Of a DNA stretch of 29,914 nucleotides, positions 1 through 17,775 are shown piece after piece. Source of the DNA: a virus (lineage: Duplodnaviria; Caudoviricetes); the IMG/VR virus record IMGVR_UViG_3300025723_000129, positions 1-29,914 of that record; one strand, written 5' to 3'. The notes under the pieces are model-generated. The model searched no databases. It was given only the letters and a program-made list of their open reading frames with translations, and was not told the origin of the DNA. Position numbers and translations under genes: made by a program. Numbering within the stretch: position 1 is the first letter of the stretch; each line of letters opens with the position of its first letter.

Positions 1-2
1 GC

Positions 3-41
3 TATAATACTAACATCAACAGCAAATAAGGAGCGAACCTA
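3..41 (+). promoter_or_regulatory. Early promoter/leader cassette 1 (-35 outside window)
   Basis: TATAAT at 3-8; ACATCAACAGCAAATAAGGAGCGAA at 13-37, identical to 644-668; ATG at 42. Confidence 0.85.
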
Positions 42-377
42 ATGAAGCTACATATCCAAACCCAATACATGGAAAACTACGGTGCCCACGATTGGGACGG
101 TCTAGGTGAGTGCCCCCAGCGTTGGAAGTTCAAAGGTGGTGAAGATTACTTCTATCAGCTAGGCGCTGTGACTCCTAGCGATGAGCACCTTGCTGAGTTG
201 GTAGAAGTCCTGCGTGGTCGCTTTGAATACGATCACGAAGGTGCCCGTAATTACATGACGGGTTATGGTGTAGTGGCAGATGACTTCATGACTGAGTTTG
301 AACGCTCACAGCTGGAGTATGATGGAGCCATTGCCTACCCTGCTGTGATGTTACAACCTTTAGAGGAGATGGTATGA
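42..377 (+). CDS. Conserved phage hypothetical protein (early)
   Basis: 111-aa ORF directly behind the cassette; TQYMENYGAHDWDG..ECPQxWKFKGG motif recalled from T4-like phage hypothetical proteins. Confidence 0.85.
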   Translation: MKLHIQTQYMENYGAHDWDGLGECPQRWKFKGGEDYFYQLGAVTPSDEHLAELVEVLRGRFEYDHEGARNYMTGYGVVADDFMTEFERSQLEYDGAIAYPAVMLQPLEEMV

Positions 378-607
378 TTACAATTGAAGATCCTAGATCA
401 AGATATGATCAAAGACATGGCGGACCCTTTGACCGTGGATCAGCAGACTCGTGGTACAGCCGTCCATTCAATCCTCACTTCTACAAGGGTGGAACCTATG
501 AAGGTCCCCGTGTGGAATTGGCGGATATGACAGCTGAAGAGATCGTGGCCTATACCGCAGGCTATCACTGGAATGAGAAGTTCGGCGGGAAGAAAGATTG
601 GGATTAA
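374..607 (+). CDS. Conserved phage hypothetical protein (early)
   Basis: 77 aa; ordinary GAGGAG SD and ATGA overlap with upstream gene; HGGPFDRGSADSWY motif. Confidence 0.85.
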   Translation: MITIEDPRSRYDQRHGGPFDRGSADSWYSRPFNPHFYKGGTYEGPRVELADMTAEEIVAYTAGYHWNEKFGGKKDWD

Positions 608-610
608 TGG

Positions 611-672
611 TTGACAATTTGGGCAAGGCCCTGTATAATAAACACATCAACAGCAAATAAGGAGCGAAACTT
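611..672 (+). promoter_or_regulatory. Early promoter/leader cassette 2
   Basis: TTGACA 611-616, 17-bp spacer, TATAAT 634-639, GGAGCGAA 661-668. Confidence 0.92.
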
Positions 673-888
673 ATGAAAACAGCAACCCAACTCAAAGACA
701 TGCAGGGCAACATCCTCCAGGTAGGCGATCGTGTAGCCATGCATTCCTATCACAACCTAGGCCTAGCCATTGGCATTGTAGAGAAGCTGGGCCGTATTCG
801 TGCCCAAGTCCGTCCCGTACAGACTCGCTTCACAAAGACAGATCCCACTGTAGAGAGCATTGGCGCTGATGATTTAATTAAACTCTAA
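673..888 (+). CDS. Small hypothetical protein, possible SH3/KOW-like beta barrel
   Basis: 71 aa behind cassette 2; KDMQGNILQVGDRV pattern typical of small phage beta-barrel proteins (inference). Confidence 0.8.
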   Translation: MKTATQLKDMQGNILQVGDRVAMHSYHNLGLAIGIVEKLGRIRAQVRPVQTRFTKTDPTVESIGADDLIKL

Positions 889-890
889 GG

Positions 891-952
891 TTGACATACC
901 GCCCAAAAGGCGGTATAATACTTACATCAACAACGAACTTGGAGCGAAAACT
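891..952 (+). promoter_or_regulatory. Early promoter/leader cassette 3 with palindromic spacer
   Basis: TTGACA 891-896, N17, TATAAT 914-919; inverted repeat ATACCGCC 896-903 / GGCGGTAT 909-916; GGAGCGAA 941-948. Confidence 0.92.
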
Positions 953-1672
953 ATGTTCAAACTATTATCTACAGCGAATCCCAAAATCCAAAAGGGCACC
1001 AAGCTCGGCTATTTGTCATTCATCCTACACCTTGCGCCTGCTACATTGTCCGGCCGAGAGACTTGCCCAAAGCGCACCGCAGGATGCACGGCCGCTTGCC
1101 TTAATACAGCAGGCAGAGGCGGTATGTTCAAAAAAGGTGAGACAACGAACATGATTCAGCAGGCTCGTATCCGTAAGACCAAATACTTCTTCGAAGCTAG
1201 AGATTACTTTATGGCTGACCTCAAGGCAGACATTGAGAAGGGTATCAAAATGGCTGAGAAGCTAGGACTGACTCCTGTATTCCGCCTCAATGGTACTAGT
1301 GACTTGGCGTTTGAAAAGTACACTATCAATGAGAACAACCTCTTTGAATTGTTCCCTGACGTACAGTTCTACGACTACACTAAGGTCCTAGGCCGTAAGG
1401 TGTCAAAGTACAAGAATTATCACTTAACATTCAGCGCCGCTGATGGCAACGATGCTGACGTGGCAGAAGCTATCAAGCAGGGCATGAACGTGGCAATGGT
1501 GTTCGACAAGCTCCCAGAGAGCTATATGGGCCGTGAGGTTATTAATGCTGACGAGCACGATTTGCGCTTCTTAGACAAGCAGGGCGTGATTGCTGGGCTT
1601 AAGGCTAAGGGCAAGGGCAAGAAAGATACTACAGGATTTGTACGCCGCGTGGTTGACATTCAGGCAGTTTGA
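953..1672 (+). CDS. Gp88-like protein (Cys-motif, radical-SAM-related phage family)
   Basis: 239 aa; CPKRTAGCTAAC (CX6CX3C), RLNGTSD, FYDYTK and DLRFLD motifs recalled from the phage 'gene product 88' family. Confidence 0.75.
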   Translation: MFKLLSTANPKIQKGTKLGYLSFILHLAPATLSGRETCPKRTAGCTAACLNTAGRGGMFKKGETTNMIQQARIRKTKYFFEARDYFMADLKADIEKGIKMAEKLGLTPVFRLNGTSDLAFEKYTINENNLFELFPDVQFYDYTKVLGRKVSKYKNYHLTFSAADGNDADVAEAIKQGMNVAMVFDKLPESYMGREVINADEHDLRFLDKQGVIAGLKAKGKGKKDTTGFVRRVVDIQAV

Positions 1673-1709
1673 GACTATAATACTACATCAACAGCAAAAA
1701 GGAGCGACT
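1653..1709 (+). promoter_or_regulatory. Early promoter/leader cassette 4
   Basis: TTGACA 1653-1658 (inside the end of the upstream CDS), N17, TATAAT 1676-1681, ACATCAACAGCAAA leader, GGAGCGA 1701-1707. Confidence 0.9.
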
Positions 1710-1811
1710 ATGTTACAAAATCTTATCGATGCTTTCATGTTCACAGCGCCTCTATGGATCCTGCTTTTAGCTATGCTAATGGCAATCATAGCGGTTGACG
1801 GAATGAACTAA
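1710..1811 (+). CDS. 33-aa single-TM membrane peptide (start re-assigned from 1590)
   Basis: In-frame ATG at 1710 follows cassette 4; MLQNLIDAFMFTAPLWILLLAMLMAIIAVDGMN is strongly hydrophobic. Confidence 0.7.
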   Translation: MLQNLIDAFMFTAPLWILLLAMLMAIIAVDGMN

Positions 1812-1857
1812 AGACAGTATAATAAACACTTCAACAACGAAACACAGGAGCGAAACT
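1795..1857 (+). promoter_or_regulatory. Early promoter/leader cassette 5
   Basis: TTGACG 1795-1800, N17, TATAAT 1818-1823, ACTTCAACAACGAA leader, GGAGCGAA 1847-1854. Confidence 0.9.
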
Positions 1858-2181
1858 ATGTTAGTAACAGCAGAGCAAATCAAACAAGGTCTTCCATTAG
1901 CAGAACAAGCAGGCTTGGCAATGTACGCTAAGGTTGGCGAGCGTGACGCTTGCGGTTTTGGTTGGGTTGATGTCTTTGTAGAGCGTACCAACAGCTCACA
2001 GGCCAAAGAGCTTATCAAGGCAGGCTTTTCCAAAAGCTATCGTCCAAAGACACTTACACTCTGGGATCCAGCTAAGATTCCTACACAGAGCATCAGTGTT
2101 AAGGAAGCAGGTGCTGAGGCTTTGGCTACATATCTGTCAGCATTGGGCTTAAAGGCCTACGCTGGCAGTAGAATGGACTAA
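1858..2181 (+). CDS. Conserved phage hypothetical protein (CGFxWV motif)
   Basis: 107 aa behind cassette 5; DACGFGWVDV, QSISVKEAGA and C-terminal SRMD motifs. Confidence 0.85.
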   Translation: MLVTAEQIKQGLPLAEQAGLAMYAKVGERDACGFGWVDVFVERTNSSQAKELIKAGFSKSYRPKTLTLWDPAKIPTQSISVKEAGAEALATYLSALGLKAYAGSRMD

Positions 2182-2191
2182 TCCAAAACAC

Positions 2192-2252
2192 GTGACACAC
2201 CCTCAGGGGTGTGTTATAATTAATACTTGAACAATATACAAGGAGCGTATAG
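2192..2252 (+). promoter_or_regulatory. Early promoter/leader cassette 6 with palindromic spacer
   Basis: GTGACA 2192-2197, N17, TATAAT 2215-2220; inverted repeat ACACACCC 2195-2202 / GGGTGTGT 2207-2214; GGAGCG 2242-2247. Confidence 0.85.
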
Positions 2253-3155
2253 ATGGCAACAGTCGTAACGAGCAAGATGCTAGCGGCATTGGCTAAGCCC
2301 GCAAAGGCAGAGACTACTAGTTTGGAAGTGGACCAAGCATTCCTCAAACAGAAGGAACAGGCATTGGCTTTGGAAACAGACGAATCAATTCTAGATCGTT
2401 TGCGTGATCGCTTTGAGATTTTGGATGACATGACACGTGCCGTAAAAGGCGGCAAGGTTAAGGCTATGATTGTAACAGGCCCTCCAGGAGTTGGTAAGAG
2501 CTTTGGTGTAGAGAAAGTACTGAGCAAGCATGATGTGTTCGCCAACGTTGCCAATGATGAGAAGCTGAAGAAGTATGAAGTAGTCAAAGGCGCTATGTCA
2601 GCGATTGGACTCTACTCTAAACTGTACCATTTCAAAGACAAGAAGAACGTACTAGTGTTTGATGACTGTGACAGTATCTTGTTGGATGACTTGAGCTTGA
2701 ACATTCTAAAGGCAGCATTAGACAGTTCAAAGAAGCGTACTATCCATTGGAATACTGATAGCCATTTGCTACGTCGTGAAGGCGTACCAGATAGCTTTGA
2801 GTTCCAGGGCGGTGCTATCTTCATTACCAATATCAAGTTCGATCACGTTAAGAGCAAGAAGCTTAGAGATCACTTGGAAGCATTGGAGAGCCGTTGCCAC
2901 TACTTGGACCTTACCATTGATACTACACGTGAGAAGCTGTTACGTATCCAGCAGGTAGTTACTGACTGTGGTATGCTTGATGAGTATGACTTGGACGATG
3001 CTACCAAGCTACAGGTAGTAGACTATGTACGTGCTAACACTGATCGTGTACGTGAGCTGAGCTTGCGCACAGTACTTAAGATAGCAGACTTGGCTGCCAG
3101 CTTCCCAGCTAAGTGGATGAGCGTAGCTGACATGACTGTTATGCGTAGAGCATAG
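2253..3155 (+). CDS. AAA+ family ATPase
   Basis: Walker A GPPGVGKS, Walker B VLVFDDCD, sensor-1 IFITN, Arg finger ALESRC. Confidence 0.88.
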   Translation: MATVVTSKMLAALAKPAKAETTSLEVDQAFLKQKEQALALETDESILDRLRDRFEILDDMTRAVKGGKVKAMIVTGPPGVGKSFGVEKVLSKHDVFANVANDEKLKKYEVVKGAMSAIGLYSKLYHFKDKKNVLVFDDCDSILLDDLSLNILKAALDSSKKRTIHWNTDSHLLRREGVPDSFEFQGGAIFITNIKFDHVKSKKLRDHLEALESRCHYLDLTIDTTREKLLRIQQVVTDCGMLDEYDLDDATKLQVVDYVRANTDRVRELSLRTVLKIADLAASFPAKWMSVADMTVMRRA

Positions 3156-3166
3156 CCGAGCTTTAA

Positions 3167-3313
3167 GGGCACATGATAGTGCCCACGTAGACTGCCCAAC
3201 GATTCGCTCCCGGCAAGTAGTCTACACTCAAAAGCCAAGTCTTACACGGCACGGCTTTTGGTATCCCTAGTCCGTAAGCCCGATTCGCTCCCGGCAGACT
3301 AGGGATTTTTTTT
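3167..3313 (+). ncRNA. Candidate structured RNA (3' UTR-derived) with two loop-displayed anti-RBS sequences
   Basis: Four consecutive stems: 3167-3172/3179-3184, 3187-3195/3217-3225, 3229-3236/3253-3260, 3263-3272/3297-3306; CGATTCGCTCCCGGCA at 3200-3215 and 3281-3296 within loops 2 and 4; ends in T8. Confidence 0.7.
3263..3313 (+). terminator. Intrinsic terminator-like hairpin closing the early region
   Basis: 10-bp stem ATCCCTAGTC/GACTAGGGAT with T run at 3306-3313; unusually large loop. Confidence 0.75.
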
Positions 3314-3640
3314 GATTTCGAAACCGACCGGGGCATATAAAATAAAAAAAGAATTTGATCACCGACCGGCATATACACGCACAAAGTTAGTAACTGCTAA
3401 CTAGCGCATGGGTACCGAAGTATTTTCACCCCCGAAAATCTATAAGTACTTCTTTTAAAATTTTCGCAGTCAATCTAAATGGGGTCGCAAGAACCCATTT
3501 GTACTGAATTTGTTCGGTCCAAAACCATTCCCCCATTCTACGTAAGTACTGGTCAAATTTTTTTTGCGCAGAAAAAATTTCGATCCTGTAGACCCATTCA
3601 TAAACACTTGCGGTGTTTATGCTTGCGGCTATATACTAGT
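3314..3640. other. Motif-rich non-coding region; candidate replication origin or packaging/terminus site
   Basis: ACCGACCGG x2, TAAGTACT x2, CCCATT x3, A/T tracts, 26-bp near-perfect palindrome at 3555-3580; function is inferred only. Confidence 0.4.
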
Positions 3641-4608: not shown

Positions 4609-5226
4609 ATGATGATCCACGATCCTGTACACTTAGATAATAGACAACGAGAATTTATACAACAACAAGTTCTGGGCAATTATTTTCCATGGTTTAGAAC
4701 ACGCCAACACACTGACCGTCAAGCACATGATCCCAAAATTACAGGCTTGTTTCCTAGCATAGACCCTACTAGGCCTACCGAAATGCCCGGTCTAGGCTTG
4801 GTAGCAGACATGCCCATATGGACACATCAACTAATGACTAGGAGCAGTGGCGCAGAGTCTACAGGCCAAATAGTCAGCGAATACTATGAATTCTTTGCTG
4901 ATATATTTTATTCATGGCTAGCCGAACACAACATTACCTGCGACTATGTATACAGAGCCAGTTTGAATTGTAGTCATCCTTCAGAATATGACTACAGTAT
5001 GCCTCACTTGGATCACTCATGGCCGCACTCAAATTGGATCATGTATTTGAATACAGTTGAAGACGCTCCTACAGCACTATTTGACGACAGCTTTAATTTA
5101 ACTGGTTTCGTGCCCTGCGAGGAATTTACAGCAGTCAGTTTTCCTGGACAGTATCACACCAATAAGTATAGTCATAGCATGCAGCAAAGATTTGTCTGTG
5201 TGTTTACTTTTGGTTCTAAAATATAA
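4609..5226 (+). CDS. 2OG-Fe(II) oxygenase-family protein
   Basis: PHLDH (HxD), IMYLN strand, distal His (QYHT), C-terminal RFVCVF; true start may be 4612. Confidence 0.8.
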   Translation: MMIHDPVHLDNRQREFIQQQVLGNYFPWFRTRQHTDRQAHDPKITGLFPSIDPTRPTEMPGLGLVADMPIWTHQLMTRSSGAESTGQIVSEYYEFFADIFYSWLAEHNITCDYVYRASLNCSHPSEYDYSMPHLDHSWPHSNWIMYLNTVEDAPTALFDDSFNLTGFVPCEEFTAVSFPGQYHTNKYSHSMQQRFVCVFTFGSKI

Positions 5227-5271
5227 ACTACCCAGTTAACACCCGATAAATATTTCCAACAGGAGAATACT

Positions 5272-5562
5272 ATGAGTATACTATCACGCCTACACCAAAT
5301 TATTGAACAAGACGTTGCCCGACTGTTTAGCACTGCCAAGAAAGCTAGTATCTTAGCTGGGCAAGAAGTTGAACAGTTAAAAGCTGAATTAGAAGCGGCT
5401 AATCAAAAGGCCATCGTGGCCGCTACAGAAGCTCGCCAACACGCAGAAGCTGCCGCCGAACGTGCTCGTGCTGCAGTTCGTGAATTGGAAATCGAAGCTA
5501 AGAGTGCTAGTGAACGTATAGCATTTCATCAAGCACAAGTAGAACGCAAAGATCCGCAATAA
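5272..5562 (+). CDS. Coiled-coil hypothetical protein
   Basis: 96 aa, Ala/Glu-rich helix; AGGAGA SD and upstream GATAAATA late-promoter-like motif. Confidence 0.8.
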   Translation: MSILSRLHQIIEQDVARLFSTAKKASILAGQEVEQLKAELEAANQKAIVAATEARQHAEAAAERARAAVRELEIEAKSASERIAFHQAQVERKDPQ

Positions 5563-6182
5563 TGCCCAGTTCAACTCTTATACCTTTAAATGCCATACCG
5601 GTATGGGTAGTTGAGGATTGTAGACTGCTTACTGAACTTGAGATGGAGCATCTACTAGACTTGGACTATAGGATGAACACATCGGGTGGGCGTAATTTAA
5701 TCACGGATAATAGACAAATACTGGACTTACCGCAGTTTGCTGATTTTAGAAAAGTTTGTCAGGACTACTTGGACGCTTATACTGGACAAGTGCTAAACAT
5801 AACCAACCCATTTAAGATTACCGATTCGTGGAGTACTCGCAATCCTAAGAACACCATACACCCTGCTCATACACATGGTAATAGTATATTCAGCGGAGTT
5901 TACTACGCACAAATACAAAGTGGCGCATTAGAGTTTTTGTTTGAACGTCAGTTTAGTAAGGATTTCAATTTTAAATATAACTTTAGCAAGTTTGATGTGG
6001 TTAATAGCAGTAGTTACTATTTAGAATGCAAGCCCGGAATGATGGTCCTATTCCCTAGCTGGGTTGAACACTTGGTAAGACCCAATGAACACGATCAGGA
6101 AAGAATCATCATAGGCTTTAACAGTTTTGTCCAGGGTAAACTGGGCGGCGATACAGAGATAGATAACATTACAATATGCTAG
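5562..6182 (+). CDS. 2OG-Fe(II) oxygenase, TIGR02466-like
   Basis: SW..HPAHTH..SGVYY..GMMVLFPSWVEHLV..RIIIGFN motif set. Confidence 0.88.
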   Translation: MPSSTLIPLNAIPVWVVEDCRLLTELEMEHLLDLDYRMNTSGGRNLITDNRQILDLPQFADFRKVCQDYLDAYTGQVLNITNPFKITDSWSTRNPKNTIHPAHTHGNSIFSGVYYAQIQSGALEFLFERQFSKDFNFKYNFSKFDVVNSSSYYLECKPGMMVLFPSWVEHLVRPNEHDQERIIIGFNSFVQGKLGGDTEIDNITIC

Positions 6183-6766
6183 TACAAGCACCGGTTAACT
6201 TAACTCCTGCTCAACAGGACTTTATTGAAACAAAGATCATGAGTGATTTGTTTCCATGGTACCGTACTGACTATCAACTGTTTGATAGTGTAGTAGCAGA
6301 AGACCACGGCCTGCCCCTTATACAAACTCCTATTGACCCACCGGGCACGGCAAAAGACCTACCCTTAATGACTCATATGCTGGTAAAAACACCCCCGGAG
6401 GAACACGAGGATGGAAGGATCAATAGCCCCAACTGGCAATTTTTTCAGGGCATATTTGACCAGTGGATGTATGAGCAAAACTTACCCTATAAACGAATTT
6501 ACCGGGCATCGCTTAATACTGTATTCCCCAGCCATGCGGACTATGGATTACCTCATGTAGATCATCATTGGCCCCATAACAACTGGATCATGTATTTGAA
6601 CACAGTACCCGACGCTCCTACTGTATTAATGGACAACAATTATCGTATACACACTGAAATTGCCTGCGAACGATATACTGCCGCAACGTTTAGTCAACAA
6701 CTACATACTCACAGATATAGTCAGGGACAACACGCTAGAATTATTGTAATTATCACTTGGATTTAA
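6176..6766 (+). CDS. 2OG-Fe(II) oxygenase-family protein (paralog of 4609 and 6768)
   Basis: FPWY, PHVDH, NWIMYLNT, distal His, RIIVI. Confidence 0.8.
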   Translation: MLVQAPVNLTPAQQDFIETKIMSDLFPWYRTDYQLFDSVVAEDHGLPLIQTPIDPPGTAKDLPLMTHMLVKTPPEEHEDGRINSPNWQFFQGIFDQWMYEQNLPYKRIYRASLNTVFPSHADYGLPHVDHHWPHNNWIMYLNTVPDAPTVLMDNNYRIHTEIACERYTAATFSQQLHTHRYSQGQHARIIVIITWI

Positions 6767-6767
6767 C

Positions 6768-7325
6768 ATGATTAAAGCTCCAGTAACACTTACTCCTGAA
6801 CAACAAGACTTTATTGAAAATCATGTTATGAGTACGAATTTCCCTTGGTTTAGAATTCCAGAACAAGCGGAAACACCCAAGGAAACTCGAGCAGTGGGTC
6901 CTATACTTAATGTTCCTTTCTTTGGTAATATATTAATGAAGCGTGGTAGTGACTACGAAGCTATACCAGGAAAGATCAGCAGTAGCTACTATAATTTCTT
7001 TTTTGAAATATTTGACACTTGGATGGCCCAGCAAGGTATAGAATATACCACAGTACTACGTGCGTGTGTTAATTGTGTGGCGGCTAGAGATTTGGACGCA
7101 CACACTAATCCGCATACTGATCATTTCTTTCCACACAACAACTGGATCATGTATTTGAATACAACTGATGCTCCTACACTATTATTTGATAATGAAACGT
7201 TGGCTATAACCGACGAGATTGCCTGCGAACAGTATCAAGCAATTACTTTTCCAAGTCAAATGCATGCTTATCGTTTTCCACGAAAACAGGAACATAGGCT
7301 AGTGGTAGTTTTCACTTATATATAA
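6768..7325 (+). CDS. 2OG-Fe(II) oxygenase-family protein (paralog of 4609 and 6176)
   Basis: FPWF, PHTDH, NWIMYLNT, FPSQMH, RLVVVF. Confidence 0.8.
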   Translation: MIKAPVTLTPEQQDFIENHVMSTNFPWFRIPEQAETPKETRAVGPILNVPFFGNILMKRGSDYEAIPGKISSSYYNFFFEIFDTWMAQQGIEYTTVLRACVNCVAARDLDAHTNPHTDHFFPHNNWIMYLNTTDAPTLLFDNETLAITDEIACEQYQAITFPSQMHAYRFPRKQEHRLVVVFTYI

Positions 7326-7333
7326 AGGATCAC

Positions 7334-7951
7334 ATGACAAACAATCATTATAATTTTGCCTACTGGGGGCCGTTATTATGGCATCGTACAGTTGAACCTT
7401 CAATTGTAGAAGGTCTGTTAGATCTTGGTCTTAATTTAGGAAAAGATAGAGATCATTCTAAGCACTTGGCCAGCAACATAGAAGATGTTAAAAGTTTTAC
7501 CCCAAGTGATCGCGAATGGGCTATGGTTCAATTAGAACATCATTTTCAAAATTATCTCCAAGCTGAACAAGAATATCTTAACCACAGAAGCAGACAGAGA
7601 GCTAGGTCGATGAATGGAGTGGCTGAGCTTGGCGGAATGTGGATCAATAGACAGCGCCAGTATGAGACTAATCCCGAGCATAAGCATGATGGGCATCTTA
7701 GTTTTGTGTTATATCTCCAAGTTCCTGAAGAATTAAAGAAAGAACACGATAGCTATATAGGACAAGGTCCTGGCCCAGGCTCTATACAATTTAGGTACGG
7801 TGAGTACTTAGATTGGGTTCTTAATGTACAAACATTTTTTCCAACTGCCGGACAAATGTTTATATTCCCTGCTGAACTAAGTCACAGCGTTACACCATTT
7901 AAAAGTGATATTGAACGTATAAGTGTTAGTGGAAATATATTTCTTAGTTAA
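7334..7951 (+). CDS. 2OG-Fe(II) oxygenase, TIGR02466-like
   Basis: WINRQ..NPEHKH..LSFVLYL..MFIFPAELSHSV.PF..RISVSGN. Confidence 0.88.
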   Translation: MTNNHYNFAYWGPLLWHRTVEPSIVEGLLDLGLNLGKDRDHSKHLASNIEDVKSFTPSDREWAMVQLEHHFQNYLQAEQEYLNHRSRQRARSMNGVAELGGMWINRQRQYETNPEHKHDGHLSFVLYLQVPEELKKEHDSYIGQGPGPGSIQFRYGEYLDWVLNVQTFFPTAGQMFIFPAELSHSVTPFKSDIERISVSGNIFLS

Positions 7952-8617: not shown

Positions 8618-8643
8618 TACTAGTCCTTGTGACTAGTATTTAT
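8618..8643 (-). promoter_or_regulatory. Late promoter overlapping an RBS-sequestering hairpin
   Basis: Minus strand reads ATAAATACTAGTC-ACAAG-GACTAGTA-AA-ATG; 8-bp perfect stem 8618-8625/8631-8638. Confidence 0.7.
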
Positions 8644-9083
8644 TCTTTAAAGTAGTACTCGTAGTTGACTGTAGTAGCGTTTTCTTTACGGACTCGAGCG
8701 CCATTTTTCATATGAAAACGGCGGGCCATTGGTGTCTGTGGACTCAGTGTAACTATGCCTTTTAGATTAGCATAATCCTTTTTCAACCATTCAGCGGCCT
8801 GTTGAAGTAAGGTAGCACCTGCTCCCGGAGCATAACTCCAGATAGTATAAAATACAGCTACTTCTTTATCCTTGTCCATACTGACAAGATCTTCTTCACT
8901 TTCAGGAACACCCTTGAGCCACTGCATACAAGTAGCCGCTAGTACTTCTTCTCCTGCTTTGAGGATTAAAATTTCTGCGGCTTCATTAATACGTTGTTCA
9001 AGTGGAATGTGCGGACGAACAGGATCGTCCTTAATTAGTCTGACTAAGGGGTCGGTGATATCTCTGATGTGATGAAGTTCCAT
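8640..9083 (-). CDS. GNAT-fold-like conserved phage protein
   Basis: FYTIWSYAPGAGATLL resembles GNAT motif A, ARRFHMKNGA resembles motif B; TATAAATA on - strand at 9113-9120. Confidence 0.6.
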   Translation of the reverse strand: MELHHIRDITDPLVRLIKDDPVRPHIPLEQRINEAAEILILKAGEEVLAATCMQWLKGVPESEEDLVSMDKDKEVAVFYTIWSYAPGAGATLLQQAAEWLKKDYANLKGIVTLSPQTPMARRFHMKNGARVRKENATTVNYEYYFKE

Positions 9084-10582: not shown

Positions 10583-12052
10583 CTAGTTAAACACTTTAAC
10601 ACCGTAATGGCGTTCAAAGTTTTTTGCGTCTGTGTGATCATTTACCATTGGGTGTCCTTTAATATTTAAACTGGTGTTAAGCAACATAGGACAACCAGTT
10701 CGAGCGTACCATAGCTCTAAGAGTTCTCTAAAAGCACTTCCATCTTTCGGAACAGTTTGTACACGTGAACTTCCATCACGATGAACGATGGCAGGATAAA
10801 GCTCAGGATTCCTGCAAGTAGCGACCACTTGCATATACCTACTATTATTCCAACCACGAGGCATATCAAAGTACTCGTCAACAAGCTCTTCGAGTATTGC
10901 TGGAGCAAAGGGTCTAAATTCTTGTCTTTGTTTAATTCCATTTACTGTGTCCTTTATATCTAAACCGCGAGGATCTGCTATTAATGATCTATTTCCTAGC
11001 GCACGTGGACCAAACTCGGCTCTTCCTCTAGCTAGTCCGCATATTTTTTTATCTTCCAAATAGTCAACAATCTCTTCATTAAGAGTGCGATAACCTATAT
11101 CGTGACCTAGGAATGGAGTAAAGTCTTTAGGATCAATACGCCAATCTGGATTTTTAGCTAGTACCGCACCTACTGTACTTCCAGCATCTCCCGGGTTAGG
11201 CATAATCCACGTATTGTCAAAATAATTACCAGTTAATCGATTAGCACTACAATTAAGAGCACAGCCGCCCATTAACACTAAATTTTTACTATTGACCAAT
11301 CGTGTTGCTTTTATTAATAAGTGTTCAAAGTAATCTTCATAAACTTCTTGAGCTGAGGCTGCAATTTCGAAACTATCTTTAACAGTTAAGTCTGGACGCC
11401 AATCCATTACACCTCTGTGACAACTACGAATAAATTTTAAATTTCCATAGTTGTCAATAAAATCATGACTCATGTCAAAATTTAATTTTTTAGGATCACC
11501 GTATGCGGCCATACCCATTAAGATATATTCATCTTCATTAGGTTTTAATCCTACACGTTGAGTCATAGCAGAATAAAACAAACCAATAGAGTGCGGATAA
11601 CGAAGGCTCCATTTCTTTTTTAACTTATCGCCTTTTGCTTCCCAGATAGTAGCAGTATCCCACTCACCGATCGCATCTATTACTACAATACAAGCTTCGT
11701 CAAATCCGCTAGTAAAATAGCCGCCAGCGGCATGACTAAGATGATGGTCTACATATTCGATAGGAGCATTAATCTCATACCGTGCCATATAAATTTCAAT
11801 ATCGTTGTCTCTGCCCCTCCAGCCTTGCCCGGCATAAAACTGTCTAAGAGTTTTTAAGAACGGACGTTCATACCAATAAACTTTGTCAGGAGTTCCATAT
11901 TGTTTAGCGGCGGCAACAATCTCTTTACAAAGATCTCTATCGTTCTTCTTCCCGCTATAACGTTCGCTATGACTTGCGAATACTAATTTTCCATCACGAA
12001 ATACAGCTATAGCTGCATCGTGACTGTTACCACTAATGCCCCAGCAAATCAT
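10583..12052 (-). CDS. Carbamoyltransferase (NodU/CmcH family)
   Basis: HDAA, ER..KND, HHLSHA, DAIGE, MGMAAYG, GGCALN, PGDAG, EFGPRALGNRS, FRPFAP, LLNTSLN. Confidence 0.95.
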   Translation of the reverse strand: MICWGISGNSHDAAIAVFRDGKLVFASHSERYSGKKNDRDLCKEIVAAAKQYGTPDKVYWYERPFLKTLRQFYAGQGWRGRDNDIEIYMARYEINAPIEYVDHHLSHAAGGYFTSGFDEACIVVIDAIGEWDTATIWEAKGDKLKKKWSLRYPHSIGLFYSAMTQRVGLKPNEDEYILMGMAAYGDPKKLNFDMSHDFIDNYGNLKFIRSCHRGVMDWRPDLTVKDSFEIAASAQEVYEDYFEHLLIKATRLVNSKNLVLMGGCALNCSANRLTGNYFDNTWIMPNPGDAGSTVGAVLAKNPDWRIDPKDFTPFLGHDIGYRTLNEEIVDYLEDKKICGLARGRAEFGPRALGNRSLIADPRGLDIKDTVNGIKQRQEFRPFAPAILEELVDEYFDMPRGWNNSRYMQVVATCRNPELYPAIVHRDGSSRVQTVPKDGSAFRELLELWYARTGCPMLLNTSLNIKGHPMVNDHTDAKNFERHYGVKVFN

Positions 12053-14388: not shown

Positions 14389-14940
14389 TTCTTCACAAAT
14401 TAAATTCATCTGTACTACTATCACGTGTGCGTAGGCAATAGCGTGAGCTTTCTTAAAGTAGTATTCCTCATTCTCTGGACGTATCCAAATCTCCGTTAGT
14501 ATCGTAGTCCAATCTTTGCCAATCAGATAACGTTTCGCTGGACGTATCATCGCCAATACTGCGGCCAATTGTTCTATCGAGGTAGGTTTGACCTGTCTCA
14601 AGATAGAACCATGCCCATTGACGTGAAAGAGCTTGTTCACGAATTCGTCTTCTAGTAAAAGATCCCATATGGGCTCTGTCTCCAATAATCGAGTAAGATG
14701 TGCTTTATCTTTCACACCTTCGTATACGCTGACATTTAAAAAGTCTATTTTAAAATAGCCGCGTTCTTCGGCAGTTTTGTAGTCAATAGTACTTATTCCA
14801 GTTATAGGATTATACGGCACACTAGTACAATATACACCTGTATTGTGCTTTTTAAAAGTACTATCTAAACTAGCATCAACGTGCTTTAACACACTTAATG
14901 CTCTAGTTCTGTCAGCAAAGTCTAAATCAATATCTGGCAT
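14368..14940 (-). CDS. Miniature DNA polymerase III alpha (DnaE)-like protein
   Basis: MPDIDLDF, KHNTGVY, GYFKIDFL, LAAVLAMIRP, FKKAHAIAY in 190 aa; ATG start at 14940 preferred over 14952. Confidence 0.85.
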   Translation of the reverse strand: MPDIDLDFADRTRALSVLKHVDASLDSTFKKHNTGVYCTSVPYNPITGISTIDYKTAEERGYFKIDFLNVSVYEGVKDKAHLTRLLETEPIWDLLLEDEFVNKLFHVNGHGSILRQVKPTSIEQLAAVLAMIRPAKRYLIGKDWTTILTEIWIRPENEEYYFKKAHAIAYAHVIVVQMNLICEELTGLAE

Positions 14941-15568
14941 AAGGATCACCAATTGTTGGAGGAAAAGCGTTAAATGACATGTTTATTCGTTGCGTATTAC
15001 TTAAATTTCTTTCTACTTTATGTAATAAAAAACTAGGAAATAAAATAATATCACCGTCAACGGGCTCGTAGTAACTTGTACCATAATAAGGCCATTGTGG
15101 TAACGTTGTCTTATAGGTAAAGTTATAAGGCATGAATTGAAGTTGCCCAGTACCTTCTGCTTGAAAATATACTACGGCGCTGACAAATGCGCCAGTGTGA
15201 GTATGTTCTCTATTGATACTGCCGGGTTCATTTACGTTTGCCCACGCATCTAATTCCCATTGATCTTCTGTTATTGTTGTTTGATTTTTTGTAATGTTTA
15301 ACGGTGTTGGCATAGATTTGTAATATTCATTACAAGCCTTTTTAAATGTAGATACTAATAACAATTCAGTTTCTTTACTAAATCCATTATGAAAATGAGG
15401 TTGCCCCATCCAGCATCCGTCATTAGCGTCTTTACTTATTTCTTCAAAAATATTTTTATTTTTATAGTCAAGAATTTCTGACACAATAACTTTGCATTGC
15501 TCTTTTGTAAACGCAGATTTAATCCGTAATATATTAGTTTGCTCTAACACATTTAATTCAAGATCCAT
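14927..15568 (-). CDS. 2OG-Fe(II) oxygenase, TIGR02466-like
   Basis: WANVN..NREHTH..SAVVYF..GDIILFPSFLLHKV..RINMSFN. Confidence 0.88.
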   Translation of the reverse strand: MDLELNVLEQTNILRIKSAFTKEQCKVIVSEILDYKNKNIFEEISKDANDGCWMGQPHFHNGFSKETELLLVSTFKKACNEYYKSMPTPLNITKNQTTITEDQWELDAWANVNEPGSINREHTHTGAFVSAVVYFQAEGTGQLQFMPYNFTYKTTLPQWPYYGTSYYEPVDGDIILFPSFLLHKVERNLSNTQRINMSFNAFPPTIGDPYARY

Positions 15569-16908: not shown

Positions 16909-17149
16909 AGCGTTCTTTACTTAGTTTATACAATATTATAACACGATCCAATGCCTTTTGTAAAGCAGGATTGGTTTGTGCTTCTTCAATTACATCCTTC
17001 CAGAAATCATTTATAAAATGTCCATTTACTGGATTATAATCCCACCCGATAGGTGTGCGTGTACTTGGATCTGCGCCCATTTCTCTGGCGTAAGTAACGC
17101 CGTTGGCTTTTTCATAGATATACGTTGCGCCAGGTTTTAGTGAGCCCAT
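16901..17149 (-). CDS. Small hypothetical protein
   Basis: 82 aa, coupled to neighbours; YIYEKANGVTYARE motif. Confidence 0.8.
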   Translation of the reverse strand: MGSLKPGATYIYEKANGVTYAREMGADPSTRTPIGWDYNPVNGHFINDFWKDVIEEAQTNPALQKALDRVIILYKLSKERYE

Positions 17150-17775
17150 TACTCATCCTTTGGTAACAATATAGCATCAAATGCCATAACCGTCCTATGT
17201 CCAGTTCCTTTCCAAGGATAAACTGTATGTGGCAAATAACTTGGAAATACTATCATAGTTCCTGGAGTAGGAGCATATTTCCAAGTATCGTTTAATATAA
17301 ATTTACTAACGTCTTTTGTATGAGGTAATCTAAATAAAATTTTGCTATCGCTAGGCCGACTGCCCTCCATTAATTCAGGAGCACTAATATAGATATTACC
17401 GCTGAGATGGCCGCCTGGATGAGAATGCATTTCTTGATACTGATCAGGCCCCTGGCGTATGGTCCAAATACTTGTAACTTTAGGTTTACAATGTGTTAGA
17501 TCTTCCGAACCACTTTGTTGTGTGATAATTTCCATGTATCCTTGGCAAACACTTTCTAACCAAGTTACTAACCAGTTTACATCTAAATTTAACTCGTTAG
17601 GATATACTTGAATTTGTTGTCCGCCACGAATACTAATTAGTGGATTATTGGCATCGTTTAATTCCGGATGCTGATGTAAGTTTTCTGATAAGGCATAAAT
17701 TTTACTAAACTCAACAGGTGGCACAGTATCAATGGCCAATGTCACTGGTTGAAAATAGGCTACTTTTAATGTCAT
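17149..17775 (-). CDS. 2OG-Fe(II) oxygenase, TIGR02466-like
   Basis: WT..QEMHSH..LSGNIY..PGTMIVFPSYLPHTVYP..RTVMAFD. Confidence 0.88.
   Translation of the reverse strand: MTLKVAYFQPVTLAIDTVPPVEFSKIYALSENLHQHPELNDANNPLISIRGGQQIQVYPNELNLDVNWLVTWLESVCQGYMEIITQQSGSEDLTHCKPKVTSIWTIRQGPDQYQEMHSHPGGHLSGNIYISAPELMEGSRPSDSKILFRLPHTKDVSKFILNDTWKYAPTPGTMIVFPSYLPHTVYPWKGTGHRTVMAFDAILLPKDE

Follow-up and report, generated by a model that had tools for sequence, protein, structure and literature searches.

A conserved hairpin element behind an early phage ATPase gene as a putative trans-acting reader of tagged ribosome-binding sites

The early region and its hairpin element

The DNA analyzed here is a 29,914-base virus record (the window, meaning this whole stretch), a fragment of a large phage from a broad group of uncultured jumbo phages, with relatives whose genomes reach up to 345–372 kb. 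Its minus strand encodes a DnaB-like helicase, a primase, UvsX, UvsY, a UvsW-like helicase, an ssDNA-binding protein and a terminase. Seven 2OG-Fe(II) oxygenase-like genes (phrog_81, phrog_274) and a carbamoyltransferase gene were also observed in the window, at 4609–7951, 14927–15568, 17149–17775 and 10583–12052. Positions 1–3155 of the plus strand form an array of short promoter–leader cassettes, of which the last drives an ATPase gene that is followed by four hairpins:

3–2247, plus strand: six promoter–leader cassettes, with TATAAT at 3, 634, 914, 1676, 1818 and 2215; leaders A/C-rich and weakly structured
30–37, plus strand: tag GGAGCGAA of the open reading frame (ORF) 42–377
661–668, plus strand: tag GGAGCGAA of ORF 673–888
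941–948, plus strand: tag GGAGCGAA of ORF 953–1672 (GP88 family, PF17338)
1701–1707, plus strand: tag GGAGCGA of ORF 1710–1811
1847–1854, plus strand: tag GGAGCGAA of ORF 1858–2181
2242–2247, plus strand: tag GGAGCG of the ATPase gene, a six-base match
2253–3155, plus strand: carrier gene, a 300-aa AAA-type ATPase of unknown function (phrog_1250), last cassette gene, with its own sigma70-like promoter (−10 at 2215–2220)
3167–3184, plus strand: hairpin 1, without the loop motif; variable or absent in relatives
3187–3225, plus strand: hairpin 2, a 9-bp stem including a G-U pair, an internal loop and a CG/CG clamp
3202–3210, plus strand: first copy of the loop AUUCGCUCC, the anti-tag seed, predicted to be open
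3229–3260, plus strand: hairpin 3, a motif-free spacer; variable or absent in relatives
3263–3306, plus strand: hairpin 4, a GC-rich stem running into a U-tract, with a CCG/CGG clamp; likely an intrinsic terminator
3283–3291, plus strand: second copy of the loop AUUCGCUCC
3306–3313, plus strand: T8 tract, the inferred 3′ end of the transcript

An earlier note on this DNA had proposed that six early genes share GGAGCG-based ribosome-binding sites, and every coordinate it gave for them is correct; a further early-region gene, at 374–607, has neither a promoter of its own nor the tag. GGAGCG occurs 12 times in the window compared with 5.0 ± 2.3 times in shuffled sequences (0 of 100 shuffles reached 12). 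Counted over the whole window on the plus strand, the full tag GGAGCGAA is found at four early start sites only and the loop word TTCGCTCC at 3203 and 3284 only, so that each is limited to early starts or to the two loops.

The tag is class-specific. In two near-complete genomes with simple pattern-based gene calls, GGAGCG was present in 10/20 and 7/20 of the GGAG leaders right behind a sigma70-like promoter, as against 7/152 and 7/142 of the other GGAG leaders, and most other genes of these phages have GGAG followed by A or T. Within clade A, which carries the tag GGAGCG, the base after GGAG is C in 232/247 GGAG leaders. Because the GGAG core lies 5–8 nt upstream of the start codon in 165/174 tagged leaders, the tag amounts to a Shine-Dalgarno (SD) sequence with a private suffix. 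The ATPase's own leader was said to hold the weakest match, which is true both in the window and across the clade, where 16/45 ATPase leaders match at least eight bases versus 142/192 of the other tagged leaders.

Computed net pairing energies with the seed range from −9.0 to −11.7 kcal/mol for the six tagged leaders, while the best of 33 other starts, a control set that includes one misplaced start (3618), reaches −7.6 kcal/mol. The seed duplex is computed to be stronger than the anti-SD duplex in all six tagged leaders, which are weakly structured and cost 2.2–3.6 kcal/mol to melt. Outside the early block, the most favorable seed energy (−7.6 kcal/mol) is that of a minus-strand gene of 147 aa at 8640–9083, which has a weak match to the C-terminal domain of malonyl-CoA decarboxylase and a partial tag, TAGCGAA.

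The element lies between the ATPase stop codon and the intrinsic terminator, and no promoter of its own was seen. The computed fold of 3140–3330 has a z of −4.85. It consists of four hairpins with T8 behind them at 3306–3313, an identical 16-mer at 3200–3215 and 3281–3296 and a G-U pair in stem 2, all as previously described. Among 20,000 shuffles of 3156–3315, none had two copies of TTCGCTCC and 87 had one. The idea that the loops expose the complement of the tag holds, but what is conserved is a 9-base loop, AUUCGCUCC, with G-C closure in the form of CG/CG or CCG/CGG, rather than an 8-mer closed by GCC/GGC. Exposure of the seed is likewise predicted for the loop of hairpin 2 but less so for that of hairpin 4, where three seed bases are paired at minimum energy and the clamp fold supported by relatives costs 2.5 kcal/mol more; opening the 8-mer costs 1.9 kcal/mol there versus 0.1 kcal/mol in hairpin 2.

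No described RNA family was recognized in the element by the earlier note, and the same result was obtained with Rfam, which yielded no match up to an E value of 1 in the window and five related loci, no match to its C4 model in the same sequences and only tRNAs at gathering scores in six more related loci. A blastn comparison with 50,697 phage records, with the element as query, was also without match. By sequence, the ATPase matches no solved structure; its closest cultured relatives, the PA5oct group, are 45% identical, and neither tag nor loop was found in the PA5oct stretch or in the HTVC008M stretch. Past the terminator, a non-coding tract at 3314–3600 contains words that are conserved in clade-A relatives (TAAGTACTT in 32/44 clusters, GGACCCATT in 26, TTTTTGCGC in 25 and TGGGTACCG in 17) and is possibly an origin, packaging or genome-end signal.

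Conservation, joint change and carriers of the loop

TCGCTCC was found no more than 230 nt past the ATPase stop codon in 70/80 ATPase-bearing loci, on unrelated stems. The 9-base loop AUUCGCUCC is nearly invariant while the stem sequences diverge, and the last loop reads CCGAUUCGCUCCCGG in all 34 distinct last loops, beside a conserved UAARY flank. The closing clamps show compensation: CCG/CGG (46), ACG/CGG (20), GTG/CAC (7), TAG/CGA (4), TCG/CGA (2) and six single types, with compensating clamps that also include GCG/CGC (1) and CTG/CAG (1). Elements contain one to four loop copies at a spacing of 43–107 nt, and with such variable spacing a fixed bivalent geometry is not conserved. Some relatives have a first copy that lacks structure and lies across the stop codon, and 32/89 clade-A motifs have an unpaired probability below 0.7 in computed folds.

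Three lineages display three tag/loop codes: GGAGCGAA/UUCGCUCC, GAGGGC/GCCCUC and GGAGCCAAC/GUUGGCUCC, of which the GAGGGC lineage was found by a pattern search plus an ATPase search. Joint change was assessed in 240 ATPase loci that formed 109 clusters at 95% identity, 106 of them with enough downstream DNA. Tag GGAGCG (A) was seen with the loop TCGCTCC in 41 clusters and without a loop in 330 nt in 14, tag GAGGGC (B) with the loop GCCCTC in 16/16 clusters, and tag GGAGCC (C) with the loop TTGGCTCC in three clusters and without a loop within 330 nt of the ATPase in four; the remainder comprised four clusters with loop A but no visible tag and 24 with neither tag nor loop. There were no cross-matches between codes in the 106 clusters, in line with the suggestion that loop and early tag would co-vary in related phages; the Fisher p value of this table is very small, though clusters are not independent trials. 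On a quick ATPase tree, loops A and B each make up a single branch (support 99), and loop C nests at another place. With one clade per code, no more than two or three joint changes can be counted as independent. A joint change of tag and loop is also expected from a decoy or an activator.

A sister group was considered as lacking the loop, and this was rejected: there the loop lies behind a winged-helix gene as the variants ATCGCTCC and GTCGCTCC, which is why an exact-word search missed it. Most tag-A clusters without an ATPase loop have the loop behind the winged-helix gene (15/19 loci), so counts of tags at loop-present and loop-absent ATPase loci compare carriers rather than presence with absence. 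In the sister group the motif is often outside any hairpin, and GGAGCG is present in only 25/115 GGAG leaders. Six of its loci (L564, L569, L570, L576, L066 and L546) have, behind the winged-helix gene and 3′ of the anti-tag motif, a second conserved hairpin with the loop GGGGTAGTGTCCC, which stands in place of the second loop.

The loop is thus carried by more than one gene. Behind the 91-aa winged-helix gene (PF14090) it was found at 22/24 distinct ends, including those of the sister group without an ATPase loop, and an independent metagenome set of 80 further loci has it at 32/69 distinct winged-helix ends; behind a 100-aa gene it was found at 5/76. GGAGC is in none of the winged-helix carrier leaders of the metagenome set (0/69), the tag is in none of 29 rows for such carriers, and the leaders of the 100-aa carriers are also without the tag (5/5). 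Near carriers, 99/162 promoter-proximal leaders are tagged compared with 3/56 near motif-free ends, a contrast that is partly confounded by the position of the carrier gene. In one near-complete genome (G001), the loop follows the ATPase but not the winged-helix gene. With the loop riding on two other early genes that have no tag in their own leaders, action in trans is favored, and self-regulation fits poorly since the module moves between the 3′ ends of genes without its target. Base-pairing of the loop with the tag in trans, as originally proposed, is well supported by comparisons between sequences. In many loci the last codons of the 100-aa early gene before its stop are often GACGCTCC, which places part of the seed in coding sequence and may be codon chance.

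Sequence features also give good support for an RNA that would read from the plus strand, as the earlier note had favored. A U-tract follows the last loop in 46/46 clade-A and 12/16 clade-B clusters, with none on the opposite strand, and the motif lies directly after or overlaps the stop codons of plus-strand genes. The last loop-bearing helix ends in, or then meets, at least four T in 41/46 clade-A clusters, so the loop often crowns a terminator. In clade B, the ratio of G-U pairs to A-C mismatches is 10:0. Clade A has 14:6 (P = 0.12, not significant), with 7:4 in helices that enclose a loop; a first, smaller count gave 6:2. One RNA run (X1; 0.07 share; contigs of relatives only) barely touches the element. 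On the minus strand, TAAATA lies inside the element in 6/72 loci and 2/46 clusters, and in one subclade (L061, L064, L390, L397, L414, L417, L425 and L427) the stem of the first hairpin contains a minus-strand TAAATA just before the tag sequence, resembling a late leader; this could be the source of a late anti-RNA or a sign that the element arose by inversion of a late leader.

Long complementary sites in late leaders

Late-promoter genes for envelope proteins (CsgF, DUF4337 and a 93-aa membrane protein) have leaders with 11–15-base complements to the element. In two near-complete 350-kb clade-A genomes, the longest complement, at 13 and 14 bases, is in the DUF4337 leader behind TAAATA, which we take to be a late-promoter word as in T4-like phages. 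A pattern search for long sites returned 72 loci: 33 CsgF-family genes, 15 genes for the 93-aa membrane protein (phrog_18771, with only a marginal holin match, E = 0.046), five DUF4337 genes, three genes for secreted PATR-repeat proteins, seven others, three loci without an ORF call and six that are the minus strand of the element itself. In an unbiased set of 93-aa genes, 11/67 distinct leaders have 11–15 complementary bases while coding controls have at most seven, and two leaders of this gene carry an A-to-G change that would form a G-U pair. The strongest sites are those on late genes (duplex energies of −31 to −35 versus −13 to −15 kcal/mol, opening cost excluded). The long late sites continue into the clamp at just one of its sides and accept a wobble-type change. 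A GCCG/CGGC fold around the tag is possible in some late leaders.

In a complete clade-C genome, the 93-aa gene bears GGAGCCAAC and the GUUGGCUCC hairpin is present too. There is no site in the DUF4337 leader of a clade-C genome. For clade B, the search for long late sites gave nine pattern matches, none at a start codon, and no long late site was found in a 75%-complete genome. As the window is a 29.9-kb fragment, late targets of its own phage are not visible. In L112, L152 and L092, sites of 15 bases were also observed before genes for putative endonuclease VII- or HNH-nuclease-like proteins and before a 50-aa basic ORF. The DUF4337 gene with the longest site stands head to head with a cold-shock-domain gene in both near-complete genomes (G001:278609–278812 and G002:283462–283665), and the G001 DUF4337 leader contains two sites.

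Interpretation and comparison with known systems

We have good grounds, from conservation and joint change, to regard the element as a real, conserved RNA element for which trans pairing has comparative support and whose function is putative. Our favored reading is that the RNA of the ATPase 3′ UTR and terminator probably works as a trans-acting antisense that would keep ribosomes from loading onto tagged messages. Host polymerase would make the carrier and target transcripts at once, and the stable structured 3′ end would build up, either as whole mRNA or as a processed piece. Its open loop would then seed on GGAGCGAA and cover the GGAG core at 5–8 bases from the start codon, which would lower early translation with some delay and leave alone the host messages and most late messages, in which other bases follow GGAG. 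Where a leader has 11–15 complementary bases, the clamp would come apart and binding would be far tighter, which would keep the envelope-protein genes silent until their late transcripts exceed the RNA in number. Simple repression does not account for strong sites on genes that need late translation. More tentatively, we consider it possible that the system is a protein-free address code, in which a lineage-private SD suffix is paired with a complementary loop on the transcript tails of early regulators: one RNA would time early shut-off through 6–8-base sites, set a late envelope threshold through 11–15-base sites, spare carriers that have no site, replace RegA/RegB and silence superinfecting phages with the same code.

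All of the comparative evidence for pairing would also fit if the pairing were real and its outcome different, with the RNA guiding mRNA cleavage, setting a late-envelope threshold for which the early tags are a buffer or sponge, or stimulating translation as a surrogate anti-SD adaptor. The strongest sites being on late genes speaks for such an outcome, and the conserved UAARY next to the last loop may point to a contact with a protein or to a tertiary one, but the GGAG core is covered at normal spacing (5–8 nt in 165/174 tagged leaders), and with leaders that take only 2.2–3.6 kcal/mol to melt, activation by unfolding would have no substrate. We know of no precedent for a surrogate anti-SD RNA, and on balance find these outcomes, which form the main rival reading, somewhat unlikely. 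Quite unlikely, in our judgment, is that the tag is a protein site (CsrA-, RegA- or RegB-like, or for a DNA-binding repressor) and that minus-strand hairpins act as a decoy displaying GGAGCGAAU. Such a decoy would change along with the tag too, the motif is fairly open on the minus strand (mean 0.65), and both the minus-strand TAAATA inside the element in one subclade (6/72 loci) and the GCCG/CGGC folds around the tag in some late leaders are compatible with it. The CsrB-style version raised in the earlier note is nonetheless disfavored by U-tracts on the plus strand only (46 versus 0) and by the G-U bias toward that strand, and the decoy is further opposed by the abutting or overlapping of plus-strand stop codons and by late sites that enter the clamp on one side only and accept a wobble-type change. 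As for the protein, no CsrA was detected in five records, in which positive controls were, and no RegA in six records of 94–100% completeness, with the HTVC008M control detected; RegB was not seen in five records in a search that had no positive control. A host protein may be the reader within the decoy reading.

A cis element, in which the 3′ UTR would pair with the ribosome-binding site on the same mRNA as in Staphylococcus aureus icaR, would leave the other tags as by-products of cassette shuffling. It would suit the 45/46 clade-A ATPase leaders that match at least six bases and the locus L065, in which the full tag is on the ATPase only; we nevertheless hold it very unlikely, with winged-helix carriers never tagged (0/69; 0/29 rows), 100-aa carriers untagged, the ATPase match weaker than those of its neighbors and the longest matches at distant late genes. 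It is most improbable of all that the tag is merely a strong SD sequence suited to a host whose 16S 3′ end is altered, a tail that the loops would mimic, or that the match arose by chance. GAUUCGCUCC does resemble the usual 16S tail, and a scan may miss the host as many genome records have no 16S genes, but among 185,579 genomes scanned for the 16S end CGCUCC there were five matches, none in rRNA, and in the same phages A or T comes after GGAG at most other genes. Chance is contradicted by the 0/20,000 shuffles with two copies and by the motif in 70/80 relatives.

The antisense reading that we prefer has parallels in bacterial small RNAs derived from 3′ UTRs or bearing C-rich loops, such as CpxQ and RNAIII, which share an mRNA terminator and seed C-rich loops on ribosome-binding sites. 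The element resembles the 3′ UTR-derived ones in lying between a stop codon and a terminator with no promoter of its own seen, but CpxQ and RNAIII are chromosomal and have individually evolved targets with no shared private tag on a temporal class. CsrB/RsmZ decoys differ in presenting GGA loops, whereas the inferred transcribed strand here reads CUCC. To our knowledge, phage RNAs that control their phage's own genes act on single operons.

Four described systems resemble the element in how they work, but it differs from each of them in defining features. Passages on the cuckoo RNAs of Alphaproteobacteria (RSs0680a–d, C14/ar14 and SmelA075/A099) describe a family with the loop motif CCUCCUCCC, which matches the generic SD sequence, with Hfq binding and with induction by stress (PMC4615179). 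Common to both are two to four adjacent hairpins with one conserved loop motif on variable stems (PMC4615179). The present element differs in that its loop is AUUCGCUCC, GCCCUC or GUUGGCUCC instead of CCUCCUCCC, and in being phage-encoded, matching a phage-private tag and having no Rfam match. As portrayed in parts of PMC12197685, the C4 antisense RNA of the temperate phages P1 and P7 controls one antirepressor message by blocking its translation, and is similar to the element in having loops complementary to ribosome-binding sites in trans, with a specificity that differs between related phages. Unlike C4, the element has sites on a whole early class and several late envelope genes rather than on an antirepressor operon, forms the 3′ end of coding transcripts and does not match the Rfam C4 model.

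In cluster K mycobacteriophages, according to passages of PMC3203893 and PMC12699233, the 13-mer SAS GGGATAGGAGCCC, with ESAS inverted repeats, extends around AGGAG near the starts of non-structural genes in a way not explained by 16S pairing, and the authors raise an RNA or a protein reader. In both cases, some non-structural genes have conserved bases that go past the core pairing with 16S RNA; here, the tag is GGAGCGAA rather than GGGATAGGAGCCC, and the phages encode a candidate reader that changes along with the tag, while those passages identify no reader of SAS. In T4, as passages of PMC3014915 describe, RegB/S1 and RegA shut down early messages class-wide, either by way of GGAG and the bases downstream of it (GGAGRAYARAA) or by way of initiation regions. 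Class-wide early control through GGAG and the bases after it is the candidate likeness, but the T4 readers are proteins and the reader here is apparently RNA, and the C that follows GGAG in 232/247 clade-A leaders departs from the GGAGRAYARAA site consensus.

A search of the full-text literature, with subscription journals largely outside its coverage, found no description of a tag/loop system; the motif catalogues of PMC5737381 and PMC10690425 could hold the element unnamed, and the loop motif is absent from six supplementary files of the latter. The element bears on how lytic phages without RegA/RegB turn off early translation and suggests a concrete reader to seek for the unexplained SAS elements of mycobacteriophages. 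If the proposed function is true, it would add a layer of phage control, with a tag and a reader RNA for a temporal class, at least three orthogonal codes and graded site strengths, and would offer compact orthogonal translation switches.

A further type of early unit, driven by a promoter and without a ribosome-binding site or ORF, was observed beside a tRNA in two related loci (L004:3244–3330 and L006:3477–3560). The two share a motif and match no Rfam family at gathering scores, and similar units are present at L074:5176 and L069:3785.
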